Notes: generated from the letters alone by a model not told the origin. 64,000 bases of DNA from Bacillota bacterium (GCA_023441055.1 JAEZQY010000067.1:150246-214245), one strand, 5' to 3'. Positions 43,062 to 53,049 are shown, counted from the first letter of the stretch. A program made the numbers and translations.

Positions 43062-44447
43062 ATGAGCAAGCGGAATCTACCTGTTGAAATAAATTCGACC
43101 TACCACGCTGAAGTTGTCGGCTTGAACCATGACGGTGAAGGGGTAGCTCGTGTGAATGGCTTCACGCTGTTCGTCGAGGGTGCACTGCCCGGTGAGAAGA
43201 TTGAGGTTCAAGTCACTAAGCTGAAGAAGCAATACGGACATGGCAGGCTGAAGCGGATTGTGGCAGCCAGCCCAACCCGCGTGCAGCCGCGCTGTCCGAT
43301 CTATGACGCATGCGGCGGCTGCCAGCTGCAGCATCTGGATTATCCAGCTCAGCTGGAGGCTAAGCGGCAGCAGGTTGTAGATAGTCTCGCCAGGATTGGC
43401 AAGATCACTGATGTCATCGTGCATCCGACCATTGGCATGGAGGAGCCGTGGCGTTATCGCAATAAGACGCATGTACCTGTGGCCTTGGAGCAGGGGCGGT
43501 TAATCAGCGGATTCTACGCAGCGAGCAGTCACGATATTGTGGAGACCGATCAATGCTTGATCGGACATGAACGCGGGGATGAGATCATCGCGGTCGTGAA
43601 GAGACTGGCAGAGGAGCTGGGGATCTTGGCTTATAATCCGCAGACAGGTCGGGGCCTGCTCCGTCATGTCATCACGCGTGTCGGCTTCCATACCGGCGAG
43701 GTCATGGTTGTGCTCGTCGTGAACGGCGAGCGCCTGCCGAAGCAGGATGAATTTATTGGCCTGCTTACGATGGAGCTGTCCGGCCTCACTAGCGTATGCC
43801 TGAACGTGAACACTGATCCATCCAGTGTGGTCATGGGAGACCGCACTATCGTGCTGTGGGGCGAAGAAACGATCCGCGACTATATCGGCGGGATCGAATT
43901 CGCTATCTCCGCCCGTTCCTTCTATCAAGTGAACCCGCTTCAGACCGAACGGCTGTATGCGAAGGCGCTGGAATACGCTGGGCTAACTGGTGTAGAGACC
44001 GTGATCGATGCGTATTGCGGAATCGGCACCATCTCCTTGTTCCTCGCCCAGCAAGCGGATCATGTATATGGCGTGGAGATTGTGCGTGACGCCATTGAGG
44101 ATGCCAGGCGCAATGCCCGATTGAATGGGATGCGCAACGTCACATTCGAAGCCGGTAAGGCCGAGGTTGTCATCCCGCGCTGGCGCCAGCAGGGCATAGA
44201 AGCCGACGTCATCGTCGTCGATCCGCCACGCAAGGGCTGCGACGCGCAGCTGCTGCAGACCATCATCGAGATGCAGCCTGCGCGGGTCGTCTACGTCTCG
44301 TGCAATCCCGCAACGCTGGCGCGCGACCTGCGCGTGCTGGAAGATGGCGGGTACCGCACTGTCGAGGCGCAGCCGGTTGATATGTTCCCGCATACGGGGC
44401 ATGTAGAGGTTACAGTGAGACTTGAAAGAAAAGATACAGTCCAATAA
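43062..44447 (+). CDS. rlmD: 23S rRNA (uracil-C5)-methyltransferase RumA/RlmD family; last ~12 codons supplied by inserted DNA
   Basis: TRAM N-terminus, Fe-S Cys cluster (CPIYDACGGCQLQH), SAM motifs (DAYCGIGT, DPPRKG, YVSCNP). The C-terminus ...DMFPHTGHVE|VTVRLERKDTVQ deviates from the family tail after HVE. Confidence 0.9.
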   Translation: MSKRNLPVEINSTYHAEVVGLNHDGEGVARVNGFTLFVEGALPGEKIEVQVTKLKKQYGHGRLKRIVAASPTRVQPRCPIYDACGGCQLQHLDYPAQLEAKRQQVVDSLARIGKITDVIVHPTIGMEEPWRYRNKTHVPVALEQGRLISGFYAASSHDIVETDQCLIGHERGDEIIAVVKRLAEELGILAYNPQTGRGLLRHVITRVGFHTGEVMVVLVVNGERLPKQDEFIGLLTMELSGLTSVCLNVNTDPSSVVMGDRTIVLWGEETIRDYIGGIEFAISARSFYQVNPLQTERLYAKALEYAGLTGVETVIDAYCGIGTISLFLAQQADHVYGVEIVRDAIEDARRNARLNGMRNVTFEAGKAEVVIPRWRQQGIEADVIVVDPPRKGCDAQLLQTIIEMQPARVVYVSCNPATLARDLRVLEDGGYRTVEAQPVDMFPHTGHVEVTVRLERKDTVQ

Positions 44448-44455
44448 ACTGTATC

Positions 44456-45987
44456 TTAATTCGGGGGGGAGAGGATTGGAGAGATTGTAATTAATCTTAA
44501 TCTTTCCATCCTCGAATACTTCGATTGTTTGGATAAGCCTTTGGAGGAATTGCTTCTATACCTGTTCATCGCTAATGTCGAGGTCAATAAAGCGTTCAAC
44601 TTCCTTCTTAAAGGCTTCATTGCGTTCCGCGAGGTTATTTCCTTCATCTAAGGCTACAATTAGTTCTGCCTTCTTATTCAGATATTCTTGTTGTTGGTGG
44701 GCGTTACGCTCGTTCTGATGCTTGAACTGGTCTGAATTGATTGTCCCGTCAACATGTAAAGTCAGTAGCTTATCAAATCGAATATCGAGTTCTCTTAGTT
44801 GCTTCTCTACACGTTAAGTTCTCTTTGAACTTGAGACTGAACAGCCAAGGATTTTTCTTCTGCAATTCCGTAAAGAGTATCGATCTTCACAGTATCCTTT
44901 ATCAAGGCTTTCAGGTCATCTTTGACAACCTGTAATAGGACCTTTTCCTCAATGATGTGAGAAGAGCAATATGAGGAATTTTCACATAGCCGCCGCATAC
45001 ATATGCACCTTTCCGTCTATCCGGTTTAAAGTGCATACCGCTTCCACAGTCAGGGCATTTAAGGATATAAGAGAATAAGCTTTCATTGCCATTGCTCTTG
45101 TGTTTGCCTCTCTTTTTCATTTGTTCTTGAGCGGCAATAAAGTCATCCTCTGTTATAAGAGCAGGATGTGAGTTCTCAATGACAACTTGTTCTTCTTTAT
45201 TGATCTTACGTCTAATCTTGTAAGTCTCAGATGCGGCCAATAAACTCGTTGTTTCTTCTTGATGAAATACTTGTTTACCCGTATAGACTGAATTAGACAA
45301 GATACCTTTAATCGTGTTTTGATGCCATTTCTCCCCTGCGTTTGCCGCCCCTGAATGTGTTCTCGGTGTAGGAACACCTCTGCGCATAAGGAGATTACTA
45401 ATGTTAAACATACCCATACCGTCATACAAATAAAGCCTGAAAACCTCCTTTATGATGGGGGTGGCTGTCTCGTCAACTTCCAACTTTTTAGAAATGGGAT
45501 TGGTACGGTACCCGTAAGGAGGTACAGATACAATTCGGTTTCCTTGAGTTGCACTAGACTTAAGCCCCCATTTAATCTTGTTGGAGAGGCTTAAGTTATC
45601 CTCTTCAGCTAACACCGCTTTTAGATTAAACATCAATCTGCTCTTGCTTGTTTGGGTATCGTAGCCATCCTCAGGAAAAATAAGCCTTATATTATTTCTT
45701 TCCAAAGTGTCAGCAGTATTAAGGCTATTAACAGTATTTCTACCTAACCGTGAAACGGACTTTGCGATGACAACATCAAACTTCTTCTTTTTAGCATCAT
45801 CCATTAATCGCAAAATCTCAGCTCGATTCTTAATACCTGAACCACTTATTCCGTTGTCAATGTACCGTTCAATTACTGTAAAGCCCTGTTCCAAAGCAAT
45901 GCTTTCCGCTAAGGCAACTTGATTCTGAAAGCTGTTCCTCTGTTCATCTCTCTTCGTGCTTACTCTAGCATAGATAGCATACTTCAT
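44456..45987 (-). pseudogene. Large serine recombinase, disrupted by at least one frameshift and two stops
   Basis: The N-terminal resolvase domain is intact (YARVSTKRDEQ..., catalytic Ser), as are the recombinase domain and Zn ribbon (CPDCGSGMHF...YVCGGY). The reading frame then jumps near 44975 to the frame giving SSHIIEEKVLLQVVKDDL. It is stopped at 44807 and again by the TAG at 44567-44569. The remaining C-terminus (...LIQTIEVFEDGKIKINYN) lies in the same frame beyond that TAG. Confidence 0.8.
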
Positions 45988-46139
45988 TGTTTTGTCACTC
46001 CTTCCATGTGTGAAGGAATGACATTTGCTCTATCATCATCGTTCTTTTTGGCTTCAATAGTGTCAATCTGATGGTTTAGTAGTGAGGATAAAATTTCCTC
46101 TAAGGATGTTGTACCTTCGAATGTGCGTTCAACTTTCAT
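45984..46139 (-). CDS. Small hypothetical protein translationally coupled to the recombinase gene
   Basis: The ATG at 46139 is preceded by GGGGG. MKVERTFEGTTSLEEILSSLLNHQIDTIEA...; the stop overlaps the recombinase ATG (ATGA). No recognised domain. Confidence 0.4.
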   Translation of the reverse strand: MKVERTFEGTTSLEEILSSLLNHQIDTIEAKKNDDDRANVIPSHMEGVTKQ

Positions 46140-46757
46140 TGTTGATTCCCCCTCTCGGGCTAACAATCGCGCTATGGTGGGGAAACGTTGCGACACATTT
46201 TTATTCCTTTGAGGGTGGCGGAGAAGATAGTCTTAACCGATTCAGCCACATATTTATTTGAAATTTATCCGTTATGGTTTATCTATTGAGATTTAATTGA
46301 ATTGCTTTGCATCCTTTGATTTCCCACCCCTTCGGGGTGGGGTACGTCTTCATGTGGTCGCTCCGCTCGGGGGCTCCGCCTTGATTTTTTAGATTATTTA
46401 TTTCATGGAAACACAGGTGGGTAAGGAAACATAATTCCCCTTAGGGGAATAAGAAACACATGTGGGTTTAGGTTTCCTACATGACATCAAGCGTGCTCAG
46501 GTACGGCTTTACCACGCGCATGATAAACATGCTCTGTCATGAATCCCTCGCTTTAGGCCACCGTGACGGGGCTACAAATAATTGTAATATCTGAGGATGA
46601 AGCACAACTTCAAATCAAATACCTGTCCATTTAACGGGGCAACACCTACTTGTGAACGCAGGGGCGGTTATTTTAGGTGTGCTACCGCAAAGCCACGGGC
46701 AAAGCATTTTATGAGTTTGTAATAATCATCGTTATTAGTTTTTGAATTGTTGCGACA

Positions 46758-47016
46758 CTACAAGAAGATAGAATCGGTATTATAACCTTTGTCCTGCAAT
46801 ACTTCTTTTAAGTGGGCTTCATCAGTCCAATATGGATATTTGCCCCATGCTTGAATATGACTAGGAACTCGTTCAACTTCTAATTCCCCGTTCCTTACCC
46901 AATTCCATACGGTTTCCTCGGTAAGAAACCGCCCCGATTGCAGTATGGATAGTTTAAAGGTTCAAATAATAAGCCACTTCATCAATCCTCATCAGTCTGT
47001 CACTTCGGATAATCAT
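46758..47016 (-). pseudogene. Excisionase/HTH-like gene broken by a frameshift or stop
   Basis: MIIRSDRLMRIDEVAYYLNL* is followed in the +1 frame by ...GRFLTEETVWNWVRNGELEVERVP..., a typical Xis/MerR-like HTH. That frame has no usable start. Confidence 0.4.
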
Positions 47017-47398
47017 GTTATCACCTCTTTAGATTTGGTCTATGACATTATAAGAATAAAGGTGTCATGTCTTAACAAAGAGTGGGTAAAGATTTCAACC
47101 ACAAATATCTGTAAATAAATGCGAGAAAGCGAAGGTAACCAATTAGTCCATCTAAATGATGGTATCTTGTCATTTTTGATACAAGGTATTAATAGAGATT
47201 GCAAAAATCAGGTTAGAAGTGTCGACACATCAATATTGCAGAAGGGGAAATTCCACAAAATTTTATATGGAGCAACGAGGGTAAACCTTGTAATCTACAA
47301 AGAATGCAACTTACTAGGAACTGGGTAGGGGATTAATAATTTTAGTTGTGTGGTAAAATAAGTTAAGGTCGGCTAAATAAAGAGATGTTAAAGACGAA

Positions 47399-47739
47399 AT
47401 GAAAAAGCACAGGTGTCCTTGTTGTGGGTATCCCACTTTAGAAGAAAGACGTGCATGGGAAATATGTTGCTTATATAATTGGGAAGATGACGGGCAAGAT
47501 GACACAATGCGGATGAGATTTGGGGAGGTCCAAATGGAGACTATTCACTCACAGAGGCTAGAGAAAACTTCAAAAAGTTCCTAACCATGTATAGAGACAG
47601 GAGAAATATTTTAAGCCAAACAGATAAAGAGATTGAAACTAATAAAGCGATGATTGAAGCTTTTGTGAAGCTTAAAGCAGCCCCTGACGACTTAGAGTTT
47701 CAGTTTTGGCATGAGATAGAAAAGGGAAAGAGACATTAG
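47399..47739 (+). pseudogene. CPCC-family cysteine-rich protein gene with a frameshift near 47505
   Basis: MKKHRCPCCGYPTLEERRAWEIC..NWEDDGQDD continues in another frame as ADEIWGGPNGDYSLTEARENFKKF.... Confidence 0.5.
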
Positions 47740-47741
47740 AT

Positions 47742-48093
47742 GATCTAGTCCAAGAGAGCGCGGAACGCTATAGTATAAATGTAGAAAAATATCGTGAAAT
47801 ACTGAACCTTATTAACTCAGAAAAAACTGATGTAAAGGTGAAAGGACTTTTGTCATTAGCTTATAATGCTGATGATGGGGAGTTTGCTCAGGACTTAATG
47901 GTTCGATATAGTCAGCATTTAAACGAAACATCAGAGGGATAGCTATTCTATGTATTGGGCATATCGCAAGAATACATCGGAAAATTAACAAGCAGCTAGT
48001 TATGCCTATTATTACAGATGGTCTTAATGACAAAAGTCAGTTTGTTAGAGGACATTCACAATCAGCACTGGATGATATCAACATGTTCTGCTA
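47742..48093 (+). pseudogene. Start-less, frameshifted HEAT-repeat-like remnant
   Basis: Two consecutive frames read ...LSLAYNADDGEFAQDLMVRYSQHL...* and then IAILCIGHIARIH...ITDGLNDKSQFVRGHSQSALDDI. There is no start codon. Confidence 0.3.
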
Positions 48094-48138
48094 ATATGCG
48101 AATATTCCTGGTCTAAAGGCTAAGTAATCTTAAATACC

Positions 48139-49518
48139 ATGTGGGTGGTGACTTTTTTGAAACCAAAGAAATATTTAGATCAATTAAAGAAAGTTAATAC
48201 ACTTCCTAACTTAGTCAAAGCTATTAAATCAATATTTGAAAACTTCGAAGATAACAATTATATTCCGGCAATTATAGAAGAGGGGAACTTCACCCTAGAG
48301 CAGGGAGAAGATTTGTACTTAAAATTAGTTTTAAAACATCAGTCAATAAAACTAGAAAAAACTTGGTTAAAGGATAACATGGCATTTGGACTAGAAGAGC
48401 CTACAGATTATAAGGATAACTTAAACAATAGTGCGTTTGCTCATAATGTTATTACCCAAAGAAAATACAAATCGCGTAATTTGTATCAACTTAATCCATT
48501 ATTGATTTCGGATGAGATCAATGAGTATGAATATTCCAATTCGAACTATGTAAATGCATATTTGAACGATGAGTATTCAAATTTAAAGGGTTTACCAGTA
48601 TTGAAATCAACAAATGATCTTAAATTAATGGTATTGAAAAAGGTTTTTAATAACTTTATTCATGATCCCGAAAGTAATATTTACCCGAAATTTGAGTTAG
48701 TAGCTGAATTTGAATATCGAACACATAATAATAGCATTAAACATATTAAACCAAATGATTATCAATCGCCGGACTCGTTACTAAGAGTTGATATAAATAA
48801 GAGTGCAGTATTAATTCTTGGTAGTATCATACTCCCACCTTTTGAAAGCAAAAAACAAGAAACTAAAAGAAATATTCAGGTACTTGATTTAAATGATCTA
48901 AAGCCGCGGTCACATAACTCAAGTCATTATAACGGCGATACTATTGAAGGGTTCGTTTGCTTTAAACCTGAAGTAATAAACATTCTTAAAGGCTATTACT
49001 ATTTTTATGATTTGCAAATGGTCGATAAAAATAATATTGAGAACACTTATTTAGTCGATGTGCTTGGTGACAAAGTTGTCTTTTGGGAAGCTGAGTATAA
49101 TAAGTTGCCCGATTTCATAAAGGATCAAATAGATACTTATAACTTTGTTCCTATAGATAAAAAGGGAGTAATAAGTCAGGCAATGTCTGCAATGCAACTT
49201 GAAGTAGATTGGAATTGGGATAAGAAACTAACTCCCGAATACATCCTAGCAAACTTAATTAGAGAGAGATCATTCAAAAGGGCAATAGATATGGGATTAA
49301 CATTTATTGAGCCTAAAACCGAAGCTGAGTTAAGGGACTTTATATTAAAAGTTGAATCTTTAACAAGTGTTAGGTTAGAGAGGTTTAATCCCAACTCTGT
49401 TGATGTAAAACAGTTAATTATTATTCGCGATGGTGATAATTTCGAGGAATCGACAAACGATTTAAAGATTCTCTATCAAAAGTATTGTTATGCAATACAG
49501 ATGGAGTATAAAAAATGA
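48139..49518 (+). CDS. Orphan 459-aa protein, no recognisable domain; partner of the downstream ATPase-Toprim gene
   Basis: Long intact ORF in very AT-rich DNA with N/K/E/Y-rich composition. Its stop overlaps the next ATG (ATGA at 49515-49518). The start could instead be the TTG at 48157, behind GGTGGTG. Confidence 0.75.
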   Translation: MWVVTFLKPKKYLDQLKKVNTLPNLVKAIKSIFENFEDNNYIPAIIEEGNFTLEQGEDLYLKLVLKHQSIKLEKTWLKDNMAFGLEEPTDYKDNLNNSAFAHNVITQRKYKSRNLYQLNPLLISDEINEYEYSNSNYVNAYLNDEYSNLKGLPVLKSTNDLKLMVLKKVFNNFIHDPESNIYPKFELVAEFEYRTHNNSIKHIKPNDYQSPDSLLRVDINKSAVLILGSIILPPFESKKQETKRNIQVLDLNDLKPRSHNSSHYNGDTIEGFVCFKPEVINILKGYYYFYDLQMVDKNNIENTYLVDVLGDKVVFWEAEYNKLPDFIKDQIDTYNFVPIDKKGVISQAMSAMQLEVDWNWDKKLTPEYILANLIRERSFKRAIDMGLTFIEPKTEAELRDFILKVESLTSVRLERFNPNSVDVKQLIIIRDGDNFEESTNDLKILYQKYCYAIQMEYKK

Positions 49519-50768
49519 CTTATATTAATGATTTTACAACACCTATAAAGTTTCTAGTTGGTATGAATGGTTCGGGTAAAAGTTATGCATTAAACGAAGC
49601 ATTAAAAGAACAAGAACGATGGGCTGTTCTAATTACAGAGGACGGAATGCCTATAATACCAAGACATATGAATCAGGTTTCAATAAATTTAGACAGCATG
49701 TCATATAATTATTTAGATGAGGGTTCCCGTGGTCAGTTAGGGAGAGGAACTGAGGAAGAAAATATATCAGAAAGAGCTCTAAGGGTCATATTATTCTGTA
49801 ACGAAATCACAAGAAAGTTGAACTTATTCAAAACAAAGTCTAAAGGGCAAGAAAAGCTTTACAACATGATGTCAATCTTCACAAGTTATAATTTGAATAA
49901 TGTTAGAGTAATTTATTTCGATGAACCGGAGAACTTCTTAGATGAAGAGTTTTTAAAGGTTATTGCAGAATTTTTTGATGTGCTGATTAATAGTGGATAT
50001 ATAGTAAGGGTCGCTACTCATAATTCTCGATTACTCAATATTTTAAAGGTTAACTTAGAGGATGTAATCTTCTTTCATACCCATTCACAGTTTCTTGTGT
50101 CGGAGGATGAAATAAAGGAACTGTTTCAAAACTCATCCTATCAAATAGAGCGCATTAGAGAACAGCAGAGAATTCAAACTGATGCTTCTATACAATACAA
50201 ACTAGATTTATTAAATCATGAGCAAGCTTTTTGTAGCTTTATTGAACAAAATTTAAAAGGTGAAGAGTTTTATAGGTGCTTATTTTATAAAAAGATTATT
50301 ATTGTTGAGGGGATTTCTGATATTGTTGCTTTGGCGTCTATGAAAAATGACTTTGATAGCTCAATTGAAATATATAATCCGAATGGAAAAGCATTCATCC
50401 CCTATTTTGTAGAATTATTTCTAAAACTAAGAAAAGAAGTTGTTGTTATTATTGATGGTGATCTTCCTGTTCAAGGAGAAGATACCCCTTTAAAGCATGC
50501 AGTCGCGGTCACTCATCTTCTGAAGGAATATGAGGCTAGAAATGAAATTAAGCTAGTAATACACACTCCCGATTTGGAAGGATTCTACAATATTGATCTT
50601 GAACATACTGGTGATTTATTAGGGATGTCCAACACAGTGAGAAGGAATAATAAGGGGTGGCTTAAATTCTTAGCCGCATTTATTTTTTTCAGCGAAGAAG
50701 TAAATAAAGAACGACTGAGGGGACATGTATTAGGAAGAGCAGATGAAAATCAATTCGAATTTCAGTAA
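49515..50768 (+). CDS. Compact OLD-family-like protein: ABC-type ATPase fused to a Toprim nuclease domain (417 aa)
   Basis: ATPase motifs: Walker A GMNGSGKS (aa 16-23), signature-like SKGQEKL (aa 108-114), Walker B VIYFDEPE (aa 132-139), H-loop ATHN (aa 167-170). Toprim motifs: Glu in IIIVEGISD (aa 261-269), DxD in VVVIIDGDLP (aa 309-318), TPDLEGF (aa 351-357). Confidence 0.8.
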   Translation: MTYINDFTTPIKFLVGMNGSGKSYALNEALKEQERWAVLITEDGMPIIPRHMNQVSINLDSMSYNYLDEGSRGQLGRGTEEENISERALRVILFCNEITRKLNLFKTKSKGQEKLYNMMSIFTSYNLNNVRVIYFDEPENFLDEEFLKVIAEFFDVLINSGYIVRVATHNSRLLNILKVNLEDVIFFHTHSQFLVSEDEIKELFQNSSYQIERIREQQRIQTDASIQYKLDLLNHEQAFCSFIEQNLKGEEFYRCLFYKKIIIVEGISDIVALASMKNDFDSSIEIYNPNGKAFIPYFVELFLKLRKEVVVIIDGDLPVQGEDTPLKHAVAVTHLLKEYEARNEIKLVIHTPDLEGFYNIDLEHTGDLLGMSNTVRRNNKGWLKFLAAFIFFSEEVNKERLRGHVLGRADENQFEFQ

Positions 50769-50840
50769 TGAGACCCTCGCGATAAATAGAATGGAGATGC
50801 GACTCTTTCGAATCGCCCTTCCTAATTTGAGAGCAAATGT

Positions 50841-50925
50841 CATTCCTTTGTTTCGAGTTGTACTCCCTGTCACCTCTTCACATGTGGAGTGTGTGGTAAG
50901 GATGTCACGGGTGGAGAAGTGAGTG
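50841..50925 (+). other. Displaced RumA/RlmD-type 3' coding tail (attR-side scar)
   Basis: The frame reads ...SSHVECVVRMSRVEK*. This matches the conserved RumA C-terminus pattern (E. coli RumA ends ...FPHTGHLESMVLFSRVK, from memory). The tail starts exactly at the GTGGAG core. Sequence left of the core is unrelated to rlmD. Confidence 0.55.
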
Positions 50926-51214
50926 TGAGAAAACCCAAGTAGACATCGTGTTTTTCGTTTTGGGGGTAAGAAAGCAGACAATTGATAATCGTGATTTTCC
51001 ACTTTGTGGGAACAGGTCCATAATGCTGATTTTGATGCGTGCAAAGCAGGATAGATATCAGTCGTTCATGACAGATTAGGTTGGATGTTAGGTTCTCATG
51101 AGTGAGCAGATTAGATATTTATTAATTTTACGAGTTTGGAAGAGCGAGTTAGATGTTCCTATAATTGCATATTAATTAACAATGTTTTATGATTGACTTC
51201 AAGGAGGGAAGGTC

Positions 51215-52681
51215 GTGAAATTAAATATAGACATTACGAATATAAAATCGATAACATCTTTGAAGTTGGAATTACCTATTAATAAAGGTCTTTATGCGAT
51301 CACGGGTGAAAATGCCACAGGGAAAAGCACCTTAACAATGTGTGCTGCATTGTTATTTTATCGCTTCGATGTGAATCAATACTTCGGGAGATTAACTAAT
51401 GATAGCAAAATAAATTTTGAGCTCAGTGAGCAACAACAGTCCATAACCTTTAATGATGGTTCTGTTAATAAGAGTGGCAACATTAATATTAAAGGTTTTT
51501 ATGAAGGAAGCTTAATTTTCGGAAATAGATTCCGGAATACAACATATACTGCGCTTGGTAAATTAGATAGAATTATTGACGATGATATTGAGCCTGCTGA
51601 TAACTTTATACGAGAAAATTTAGGCTTAATATTAAGAAATGATAAACACTATTATAAAGATCTTTTTAAGCTAAAGACTGGCTTACAAAACAAATATAAA
51701 CTTGGAGGAACTCCATTTTTCTATATGAGAAATGGACGAAGAATTAACCAAGCTCATATGTCCACTGGTGAAAACTTAATGTTGAGTATCCTCCATTCTC
51801 TGAAATTACGCATTGATGATCGAGGAGATATTAATATTCCATGTGTAATTTTTCTTGATGAAATTGAACTAGCATTACACTCATCCTCCCTTAGAAGGCT
51901 GGTCAAATTATTAAGCGAGATTGCCGCTCAATTTAATTTTGCTATATATTTTTCTACGCATTCAATTGAACTTATCAGAGATATAAAACCCGAAAGAATA
52001 TTTTATGTTCAGAAATACATTAATAATTCAATTGATGTATTAAATCCTTGCTATCCGGCTTTTGCGACCAAAAATTTATATGATGGTAATATGGGCTACG
52101 ACACTGTTATATTGGTTGAAGACGACTTAGCTCGTTCAATAATTCTGAACTTACTGAAAAACCATAATTTATTGAATAACAAACTGGTATCAGTATTGCC
52201 CTGTGGGGGATGGCAAAATGTACTCCGGATGTCTCAAGACATACTCCAAAGCAATCTATTGGGTGATAAATCTAAAATTGTTGTTATATTAGACGGGGAC
52301 GTACAAAATAGTGTACCTGCCTTTCTGGAGGCAAATAATATTTCTCGGAGCATAGTTTTAAACTTCTTGCCAATATCTAGTTTGGAGAAGTACTTAAAAA
52401 ATAATCTTTATGATAATGTTAATCAACAATTATCTCAAGAACTTGATAACTATGTTTTTCATAAAGTAGGTCTTCGCACCATTTTACAAACTTATAAAAA
52501 TAATGGTCCTTATAGAAAAGATGATGCAAACGGAAAAGAGTTGTTTGATGATTTAGAACACGAATTAATTTCAAATGGAAAGAATAGGGATGACCTAATA
52601 GAAATTATTATTCGCTATATTAGTAACAATGATTCTATTCGACTCGAAAAAATAGTCTCTTTTCTCAATTCAAAAATATAA
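51215..52681 (+). CDS. Stand-alone ABC-type ATPase fused to a DUF4435/Toprim-like domain (488 aa), OLD/PARIS-like architecture
   Basis: GTG start behind AAGGAGGG. ATPase motifs: Walker A GENATGKST (aa 31-39), signature MSTGENL (aa 182-188), Walker B VIFLDEIE (aa 211-218), H-loop STHS (aa 247-250). Toprim-like motifs: Glu in ILVEDD (aa 299-304), GGW (aa 331-333), DxD in VVILDGDV (aa 356-363), PISSLEKYL (aa 386-394). Confidence 0.8.
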   Translation: MKLNIDITNIKSITSLKLELPINKGLYAITGENATGKSTLTMCAALLFYRFDVNQYFGRLTNDSKINFELSEQQQSITFNDGSVNKSGNINIKGFYEGSLIFGNRFRNTTYTALGKLDRIIDDDIEPADNFIRENLGLILRNDKHYYKDLFKLKTGLQNKYKLGGTPFFYMRNGRRINQAHMSTGENLMLSILHSLKLRIDDRGDINIPCVIFLDEIELALHSSSLRRLVKLLSEIAAQFNFAIYFSTHSIELIRDIKPERIFYVQKYINNSIDVLNPCYPAFATKNLYDGNMGYDTVILVEDDLARSIILNLLKNHNLLNNKLVSVLPCGGWQNVLRMSQDILQSNLLGDKSKIVVILDGDVQNSVPAFLEANNISRSIVLNFLPISSLEKYLKNNLYDNVNQQLSQELDNYVFHKVGLRTILQTYKNNGPYRKDDANGKELFDDLEHELISNGKNRDDLIEIIIRYISNNDSIRLEKIVSFLNSKI

Positions 52682-52809
52682 ACCTATTAAATATCAAGAT
52701 ATCAAAAATGAGACGTTGCCCAACTACCATTTATTAATTGTCTGCATTATTTGAAAACGAACAAGACACCCTACACTCAAATCTCGTAGAGTGCTTTGCT
52801 CGTTTTTCG

Positions 52810-53049
52810 TTATCCTTCCACATCCACCGTCACGCCTGAGTTGAACTCCACCGCAAATTTGTCCGCAAAGACCGTGACCTTCACAATCAGCCGCCTGACC
52901 AGTTGCACGTTGTACTCGGTGATGGTGATGGGCTGCTCCCGTAGGAATGCGCTCATATCAGCGATTCGTTTGAGCAGCTCATCCCGGCCTACATTTTCCA
53001 CCATGACCTTCTGCTTTTTTGCTGATAATAATGCCATCGGAAATAGCAA
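52810..53049 (-). pseudogene. C-terminal fragment of a second large serine recombinase (DUF4368-like tail)
   Basis: ...ITEYNVQLVRRLIVKVTVFADKFAVEFNSGVTVDVEG matches the conserved tail of TndX/TnpX-type recombinases. No catalytic domain lies upstream. Its G+C content is higher than its surroundings. Confidence 0.55.

Follow-up and report, generated by a model that had tools for sequence, protein, structure and literature searches.

An island integrated in rlmD

The window analyzed here is a 64,000-nucleotide stretch of DNA from a Bacillota bacterium (GCA_023441055.1 JAEZQY010000067.1:150246-214245; positions are counted from its first letter), in which the methyltransferase gene rlmD appears to carry an insertion near its 3' end. 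We hold with considerable confidence that the segment from 44400/44402 to 50880/50889 (6,481 bp) is a decayed island integrated in rlmD by a large serine recombinase (LSR), and that it represents a new family of small chromosomal islands of the Bacillales. The evidence comes from the two junctions, from homologous intact elements at the same site and from lesions in the genes of the island. An earlier note on this DNA had read the two junctions as the attL and attR of an element of about 6.5 kb, and this is borne out by at least eight other loci in which a homologous element with an intact recombinase occupies the same codons of rlmD.

Junctions and displaced tail

The rlmD open reading frame (ORF; 43062-44447, + strand) encodes a 23S rRNA m5U methyltransferase of the RumA/RlmCD family. 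Its best solved relative is S. pneumoniae RlmCD (5XJ1, E 8e-102), and the alignment extends through the tail. The host part of the gene would end in the His codon of the catalytic HVE motif, after its CA. The Glu of this motif, presumably the catalytic base, aligns with a position that is occupied by Gln in one deposited sequence of RlmCD (HVQ, example chain 5xj2_A). At 44400 the GC content falls from ~0.57-0.62 to ~0.40, and after GHVE the frame continues as VTVRLERKDTVQ and a stop codon. The ORF thus terminates ...DMFPHTGHVEVTVRLERKDTVQ (also written ...VDMFPHTGHVEVTVRLERKDTVQ), and its ending with the element-encoded tail reads ...HVEVTVRLERKDTVQ.

A second RlmD-like tail, reported in the earlier note, is indeed present 6.5 kb downstream, where the frame at 50881-50925 reads HVECVVRMSRVEK followed by a stop. 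Its similarity to RlmD starts at HVE, and nothing else in the window resembles the RlmD C-terminus: when the window was searched with RlmD using tblastn, the only match outside rlmD was SSHVECVVRMSRVEK (50875-50919), the last 15 residues of a 59-codon ORF (50743-50922, + strand) that ends ...VLPVTSSHVECVVRMSRVEK. Likewise, a regular-expression search of all frames found only two RlmD-like frames consisting of H-V-E, a tail and a stop on the + strand, and these are the two junctions. The 9-bp core that the two junctions had been said to share is present in both places, but the left copy, CATGTAGAG, lies one base from where it had been put (Table 1). The A at 44405, which is the sole A/G difference between the two cores, is a synonymous change unique to the window copy. 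The significance of the junctions comes from their context, since there are only two frames with HVE, tail and stop and the same junction sequences recur in other genomes.

The displaced tail, CVVRMSRVEK, matches a widespread ending of uninterrupted RlmD proteins, HVECVVLMSRVEK (P0124, L051), being one residue from CVVLMSRVEK; the proteins with this near-identical tail are 51-71% identical to the window RlmD. RlmD has its closest homologue (80% identity) in a non-syntenic locus, and the tail there is different. The sequence at 50.88 kb is the rlmD tail that was in use before this insertion, whether native or donated by an older element, and it probably represents the ancestral native end of rlmD. 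The surrogate and the displaced tails share 3 of 10 residues.

Related elements in other genomes

The junctions of the window were aligned with those of ten other loci: L084; Paenibacillus sp. GYB004 (L085); Brevibacillus (L088); P. xerothermodurans (L089); Parageobacillus thermoglucosidasius (L090, L091); Paenibacillus sp. JCM 10914 (L098); Heyndrickxia oleronia (L099); and two metagenome contigs in which the left junction of the element is fused to the 3' end of rlmD (L092, L093). The intact recombinase that the earlier note had suggested searching for was found as 511-amino-acid (aa) relatives beside rlmD in Paenibacillus, Brevibacillus, Parageobacillus and Heyndrickxia. In L085, L088-L091, L098 and L099 the recombinase gene is convergent with rlmD and lies within 18 nt of the rlmD stop codon: the distance from its end to the stop of the chimeric rlmD is 7 nt in L085, L088, L089 and L099 and 17 nt in L090, and there is a 4-bp overlap in L098.

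In these loci rlmD ends with HVE followed by VTVRLERKDTVQ or a close variant (VIVRLERKDTVN, CMVRLELKDIVQ, VTVKLVLKGTVD); the window tail itself recurs in L084, L085 and L092, and near-identical tails are found in L088, L089, L093, L098 and L099. The tail-coding DNA is 83-88% identical to that of the window, whereas the rlmD sequences of the hosts differ much more. A conserved right end, ...GAGCAAATGYCATTCC...TGTACTCCCTGTCACCTCNTCA, translating ...VLPVTSS, is located 5.7-8.8 kb downstream, directly before CATGTGGAG; the right end of the window element is kept in this position in L084, L085, L088 and L089. Beyond it are displaced tails that are specific to each host (CCVSLACNK, CCVLLVRTQ, SVALLVRNDTGA, CVSLIEWRGEPN and CCSLLVRKDN). 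Conserved element arms combined with host arms that vary from copy to copy are the pattern expected of attL and attR sites.

Elements of this family also occur next to one another. The left junction of L084 is joined to another element rather than to rlmD, L091 contains two elements in tandem, L089 has two successive tails, and L098 has four successive HVE junctions (at flipped coordinates 9957, 16432, 18557 and 20509). The arrangements in L084 and L091 show that the VTVRLER tail belongs to the element.

The family was rlmD-specific at every locus examined. Its backbone comprises, in order, the LSR gene, a small ORF (the '50-aa ORF'), a cargo slot, an EGFOA RNA or an HTH_36/DnaD-like gene, a 77-aa ORF, an HTH_17 gene, a second cargo slot and the right end. 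The cargo of the sister elements L085, L088, L089, L091 and L099 is mostly of defence or resistance type and includes HinfI-like and SacI-like restriction-modification genes, Cap4-nuclease and DUF4365 genes, a TIR/SEFIR protein, MazG and an ANT(6)-type adenylyltransferase.

Proposed mechanism of integration

We propose that an LSR integrated the circular element into rlmD at the catalytic His-Val-Glu codons, 13 codons before the stop. An attP of the form ...TGTACTCCCTGTCACCTCTTCA-CATGTGGAG-GTTACAGTGAGACTTGAAAG... would have recombined with an attB of the form ...TTCCCGCATACGGGG-CATGTGGAG-TGTGTGGTAAGG... inside the shared 9 bp. In the attP sites reconstructed from five copies, 12-15 of the 24 positions that flank the CA of CATGTGGAG are complementary (chance ~6/24, P ~5e-4), which makes attP an imperfect palindrome. 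Judged by this symmetry, the strands would have been exchanged at the CA of the His codon (44400-44401 and 50881-50882), in which case attL owes its Val-Glu codons and its entire tail to the element. The left arm of the element continues the rlmD frame, supplying a stop codon and a substitute for the last beta strand (VTVRLER), so that RlmD stays full length (461 vs 459 aa).

The chimeric RlmD is probably functional. The AF2 model of the protein has a pLDDT of 88, and residues 449-456 (EVTVRLER, element-encoded) form the last beta strand. Stronger, if indirect, support comes from the distribution of mutations, as rlmD remains intact while the adjoining 1.5-kb recombinase gene has gained four disabling lesions.

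The earlier note had stated that the element-encoded tail mimics the native one and that a 9-bp inverted repeat spans the new stop. The replacement of the earlier tail by VTVRLER stands, and the inverted repeat is real and contains the stop codon. Its arms, however, are 10 bp long (AAGATACAGT, 44431-44440, and ACTGTATCTT, 44448-44457, with the rlmD stop in the loop), and it is best read as the terminator of the recombinase gene. The possibility that it is an att feature was rejected in favor of a terminator on the basis of a minus-strand match in the terminator scan and the predicted RNA fold (-13.7 kcal/mol, z = -3.3). The rlmD stop would thus sit within the terminator loop of the convergent recombinase gene. 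The hairpin is antisense to the replacement tail of rlmD, in which it is read as the segment 'ERKDTVQ' and the stop. Conservation of the tail may therefore reflect constraints on the attP arm and the terminator besides selection on RlmD, and the mimicry could in part be a by-product of them.

Several observations weigh against the integration model or its details. No empty attB from the same species was found by exact-protein look-ups of the upstream regulator and RlmD; all contigs with the flanking genes are from metagenome assemblies, are identical to the window and carry the insertion. Searches with the reconstructed att sites gave no match, for attB in JGI metagenome contigs and for attP in IMG/VR viral contigs. 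The attB shows no clear dyad symmetry, so it is from attP that the position of the crossover is deduced. The 9-bp core alone is compatible with chance (2 matches vs 1.1 expected; 31 of 100 shuffles reach 2) and was rejected as stand-alone evidence. The alignment rows behind the AF2 model carry native tails, which weakens its support for the substitute strand. Finally, the successive HVE junctions in relatives raise the possibility that the tail at 50.88 kb was itself the gift of an older element, as considered below.

One alternative would be that there is no insertion and that rlmD natively ends ...VTVRLERKDTVQ; the frame at 50.88 kb would then have arisen by chance or be left over from another methyltransferase paralogue. 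Other than the chance level of the 9-bp core, the data speak against it. The DNA that encodes VTVRLERKDTVQ accompanies the recombinase in different genera, adjoins another element instead of rlmD in L084, and is far better conserved than the rlmD genes of its hosts. RlmD similarity at 50.88 kb begins exactly at HVE, after the conserved element end, and the tblastn search over the window detected no methyltransferase remnant upstream of that tail. Both circumstances that the earlier note had named as refuting the insertion, a native ending of the element type and a truncated paralogue at 50.88 kb, are thus contradicted by these results, and we consider this alternative to have a negligible probability.

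Decay of the recombinase and other mobility genes

The features of the island are listed in Table 1.

Table 1. Coordinates of the rlmD junctions and of island features in the window
Feature	Position	Strand	Remarks
Host part of rlmD (B arm of former attB)	43062..44401	+	Pfam TRAM and tRNA_U5-meth_tr
attL core, CATGTAGAG	44400..44408	+	His-Val-Glu codons; crossover probably at CA, 44400-44401
Element-encoded replacement C-terminus, VTVRLERKDTVQ and stop	44409..44447	+	P' arm of attP
Intrinsic-terminator-like hairpin of recombinase gene	44431..44457	-	10-12 bp stem, then TTTTCTTTC; terminator scan
Large serine recombinase pseudogene	44456..45987	-	Pfam Resolvase, Recombinase and Zn_ribbon_recom
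Small conserved ORF ('50-aa ORF' of family), intact	45984..46196	-	Upstream of and overlapping recombinase start
EGFOA RNA (Rfam RF02955)	46479..46600	-	63.1 bits vs gathering score 37.7; model positions 1-108
HTH_17 remnant fused to 77-aa ORF	46764..47016	-	First 20 codons of HTH_17 (47016-46957), deletion-fused to 77-aa ORF (46955-46764)
Overlapping gene pair, both intact	48139..50768	+	459-aa protein and 417-aa ABC-ATPase/OLD-like TOPRIM protein
Element right end (P arm of attP), ending ...TGTACTCCCTGTCACCTCTTCA	50830..50880	+	Holds right copy of 19-bp repeat
attR core, CATGTGGAG	50881..50889	+	
Pre-insertion rlmD tail CVVRMSRVEK and stop	50890..50925	+	B' arm of former attB

The N-terminal part of the recombinase pseudogene is a 358-aa ORF with matches to PF00239 (1.3e-31) and PF07508 (1.7e-23); the match to PF13408 (4.8e-05, 24.1 bits) is slightly below the curated cut-off of 25.3 bits. 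All three domains are present in the full-length 511-aa homologues, which are 60-87% identical to the window sequence (best P0001, 87%). When intact P0001 was compared with the window by tblastn, the recombinase was recovered as three pieces in three frames (aa 1-336, 337-392 and 394-509). The lesions are frameshifts near 44980-45004 and 44813-44816, an in-frame TAG at 44556-44558, and a third frameshift, a +1 insertion in the G run at 44463-44469, which throws the ancestral stop (44456-44458) out of frame. With three frameshifts and one nonsense codon, the gene is dead. A phage or plasmid origin of the recombinase was rejected; the phage- and plasmid-borne LSRs searched were at most 29% identical.

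The small ORF that overlaps the recombinase start is 66-80% identical to the ORFs in the same position in L085 and L084. Further upstream, comparison with the L084 and L085 proteins by tblastn revealed that the HTH_17 gene has been truncated and that the adjoining 77-aa ORF (46764-46955) is a remnant; a promoter-like site is predicted at 47047-47075 (promoter scan 10/12). The HTH_17 protein may have served as a directionality or regulatory factor. With the LSR gene disabled and HTH_17 cut to 20 codons, the island would be incapable of self-excision, in agreement with the earlier view of it as immobilized.

A 19-bp perfect inverted repeat, AGAGCAAATGTCATTCCTT, was detected by repeat search at 46013-46031, within the small ORF immediately upstream of the start of the recombinase gene, and at 50830-50848, ~35 bp inside the right end. 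Both positions are conserved in L084, L085, L088 and L089 (0-3 mismatches), and the repeat may be an operator or accessory site. In the circular form the two copies would bracket the recombinase gene and attP.

It is conceivable that the island is still mobile and could be excised in trans by a related recombinase and directionality factor encoded elsewhere in the genome, because its att sites are intact, with only one synonymous position at which attL and attR depart from the family consensus. Tandem or multiple elements of the family do coexist in single genomes (L091, L084). No intact LSR was found in the 64-kb window, however, and all recovered contigs are in the integrated state; we regard mobility in trans as improbable.

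A conserved structured RNA

The EGFOA RNA of the island is followed by a terminator-like hairpin at 46434-46450 (terminator scan). EGFOA RNAs were also identified in L084 (5400-5525), L085 (7783-7905), L097 (2601-2720) and L099 (9357-9461), so that five of the nine elements with a readable interior have one. L097 is a more distant element on an IMG/VR contig, and its recombinase is co-directional with an rlmD tail reading HVESVACLIYKGF and a stop. The RNA has the same position in all five elements: HTH_17 and the 77-aa ORF come before it, and the cargo slot and the recombinase follow. DNA identity among the three most similar copies is 95%, although for the neighboring 77/79-aa ORF protein identity is only 45%. 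Compensatory (double) changes affect 6 of 28 predicted base pairs among the five element-borne copies.

The elements that lack EGFOA (L088, L089, L091 and L098) have an HTH_36/DnaD_N gene in that region instead; EGFOA was absent from L088 even at E <= 1. Among sister elements the RNA and the HTH_36/DnaD-like gene are mutually exclusive, and no remnant of an HTH_36 gene was found in the window. Since EGFOA fills the slot of a gene for a 'replisome organiser' of HTH_36/DnaD-like type, it may serve in maintenance or replication of the circle or in the control of excision and integration. EGFOA was not found in other LSR-bearing rlmD loci (L019, L030, L031, L042, L056, L060 and L068) or, by blastn, in plasmid and phage collections.

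EGFOA is an orphan class of structured RNA that has been described only as a putative small RNA in large intergenic regions, with recent cryo-EM structures of oligomers (bioRxiv 10.64898/2026.07.01.735769). A literature search that did not extend to the supplement of the discovery paper found no link between EGFOA and mobile elements. We tentatively suggest, at somewhat less than even odds, that EGFOA belongs to the functional core of the serine-recombinase islands that target rlmD and is not a host small RNA. As a conserved module of an island family it offers a new lead, and its genetic context makes its function testable in culturable strains.

Cargo of the island

The overlapping gene pair of the cargo is intact. 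The 417-aa gene (49515-50768) matches PF20469 OLD-like_TOPRIM (33.5 bits, cut-off 23.2), and its product has sub-threshold ABC-ATPase matches to PF13304 AAA_21 (23.9 bits vs a cut-off of 27) and PF02463 SMC_N, together with weak PADLOC matches to Old (5.9e-08), GajA, AriA and PtuA. The protein thus combines an N-terminal ABC-type ATPase with a C-terminal TOPRIM domain, the architecture of the OLD-family ATPase-TOPRIM nucleases. The 459-aa partner contains no Pfam domain; its AF2 model (pLDDT 87) had no match in PDB or BFVD at E <= 0.001. The same pair occurs, conserved, in Brevibacillus laterosporus and Bacillus cereus, in other contexts and beside other mobility genes (L094 743-3360; L096 8001-10617). 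It is a candidate for an uncharacterized OLD-family cassette with a putative role in defence.

With rlmD, the EGFOA RNA and the two-gene cargo intact in the window copy, the cargo is in effect domesticated. A short ORF at 47399-47584 (+ strand) matches Cys_rich_CPCC (9.4e-10) over the first 43 of 75 profile positions only and is probably a truncated cargo gene. No relaxase, coupling protein or type IV secretion system domain was found in any ORF of the 44.4-50.9 kb region.

Sequences beyond the displaced tail

Another alternative keeps the same element and junctions but supposes that the tail at 50881-50925 was donated by an older element at the same site, elements having accreted in tandem so that the newest lies closest to rlmD. 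What is left of the older element would then be the low-GC DNA that extends from 50926 to ~53.1 kb, possibly to 56.4 kb. In keeping with this idea, low GC (0.31-0.41) persists to ~56.4 kb, the region contains a defence-type ATPase-Toprim gene and the C-terminal remnant of an LSR gene, and tandem arrays are real in relatives (L091, L089, L098). However, the displaced tail is only one residue from the CVVLMSRVEK of uninterrupted RlmD proteins in diverse Bacillota, and L051, which has that ending, contains no recombinase within 10 kb. Neither a further HVE-type tail nor a CATGTRGAG core was found downstream in the window, and the LSR remnant is 1.9 kb from the tail rather than abutting it. Donation by an older element is accordingly judged rather unlikely, though it deserves more weight than excision in trans, and a displaced native tail remains our preferred reading.

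The ATPase-Toprim gene of this region (51215-52681) encodes 488 aa and matches the PADLOC model ATPase-Toprim_I-B (retron type I-B effector) at 5.7e-39. No reverse transcriptase was found near it, and it is flanked by imperfect ~40-bp inverted repeats (50945-50988 and 52731-52771). The LSR remnant (52810-53049, - strand) consists of the last ~80 codons of a different, unrelated LSR and is 72% identical to a fragment in L060. It is followed, between 53.1 and 56.4 kb, by low-GC genes for a PdxR/MocR-like regulator, a DJ-1/RidA fusion and a flavoprotein-like ORF. The stretch from 52810 to 56.4 kb is possibly an older island.

The rlmD 3' end as an integration site

RlmD C-termini are hypervariable immediately after HVE in Paenibacillaceae and other Bacillota (L001-L080, P0121-P0240), with dozens of tail types, and several contigs of metagenome-assembled genomes break at, or a few codons from, the His/HVE codons. 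The pattern points to an element origin of many annotated RlmD tails and to an accumulation of islands at this site; at least part of the variability would arise because elements keep replacing the tails. Given the defence-type cargo (restriction-modification, Cap4-like nuclease, TIR/SEFIR protein and OLD-like pairs), rlmD may be regarded as an accretion site for defence islands.

The value of the present island lies in the features of its family, a compact, site-specific group of LSR elements with readable att sites. The coding motif targeted through attP and attB, FPHTxHVE, is conserved almost universally, and the family may be of use as an integration tool and as an aid to annotating RlmD C-termini. 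Intact members are available in cultured Paenibacillus, Brevibacillus, Parageobacillus and Heyndrickxia.

Comparison with known systems

The rumA/rlmD 3' end is an established target of serine integrases in streptococci, C. difficile and Dehalobacter (PMC4701971, PMC5357655, PMC5704250, PMC11578063), as the earlier note had correctly stated for rumA (PMC4701971, PMC5357655, PMC11578063). The type of insertion is therefore already known, and the recombinase island described here is a new family within it.

In streptococci, integrative and conjugative elements, integrative and mobilizable elements and prophages with a single rumA serine integrase include ICE_Spy2096_rumA, ICESp2905 and IME_SpnAP200_rumA (Ambroset 2016 PMC4701971, Coluzzi 2017 PMC5357655). 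They share with our family the site-specific insertion by an LSR in the 3' part of a methyltransferase gene, the short identical junction cores and the replaced C-terminus. In the streptococcal elements, however, the att site is inside the integrase gene, and the 3' ends of rumA and the integrase gene are exchanged reciprocally with changes of frame. In our family the core is ~48 bp beyond the recombinase stop and rlmD is continued in frame. An att site within the integrase gene is a trait of the Ser_4 class, whereas the LSR ORFs of the intact relatives end well outside the core, and the family is set apart from Ser_4 by this description. Unlike the streptococcal class, the island has no conjugation or mobilization genes in its 6.5 kb. 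The best identity of its recombinase to LSRs of streptococcal phages, whose targets are unidentified, is 28-29%. The ends of the streptococcal prophage Javan639, tried as a proxy for a rumA att site, were uninformative, as the record is cut at gene boundaries.

CTn5 of Clostridioides difficile and the elements of a Dehalobacter hotspot show the rumA 3' end as a recurrent target of serine-recombinase elements, with nested or tandem recombinase islands (PMC4701971, PMC11578063). Those elements are tens of kb long and conjugative or composite, whereas the present island is 6.5 kb and carries defence-like cargo and a structured RNA. With Tn4451/Tn4453 (TnpX) and Tn5397 (TndX) the family shares compactness, a single LSR and, presumably, a circular intermediate, and TndX is among the nearest named relatives of the recombinase (28% identity). 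The TnpX and TndX elements, which are equipped with mob or conjugation functions, choose their targets loosely (GA dinucleotide sites), whereas our family was strictly rlmD-specific in all loci examined. Finally, as in tyrosine-integrase islands that target tRNA or tmRNA genes, a surrogate 3' end would keep the target gene functional. Those islands use another class of recombinase and restore the gene with a near-exact duplicate; here, the surrogate is a non-identical peptide.

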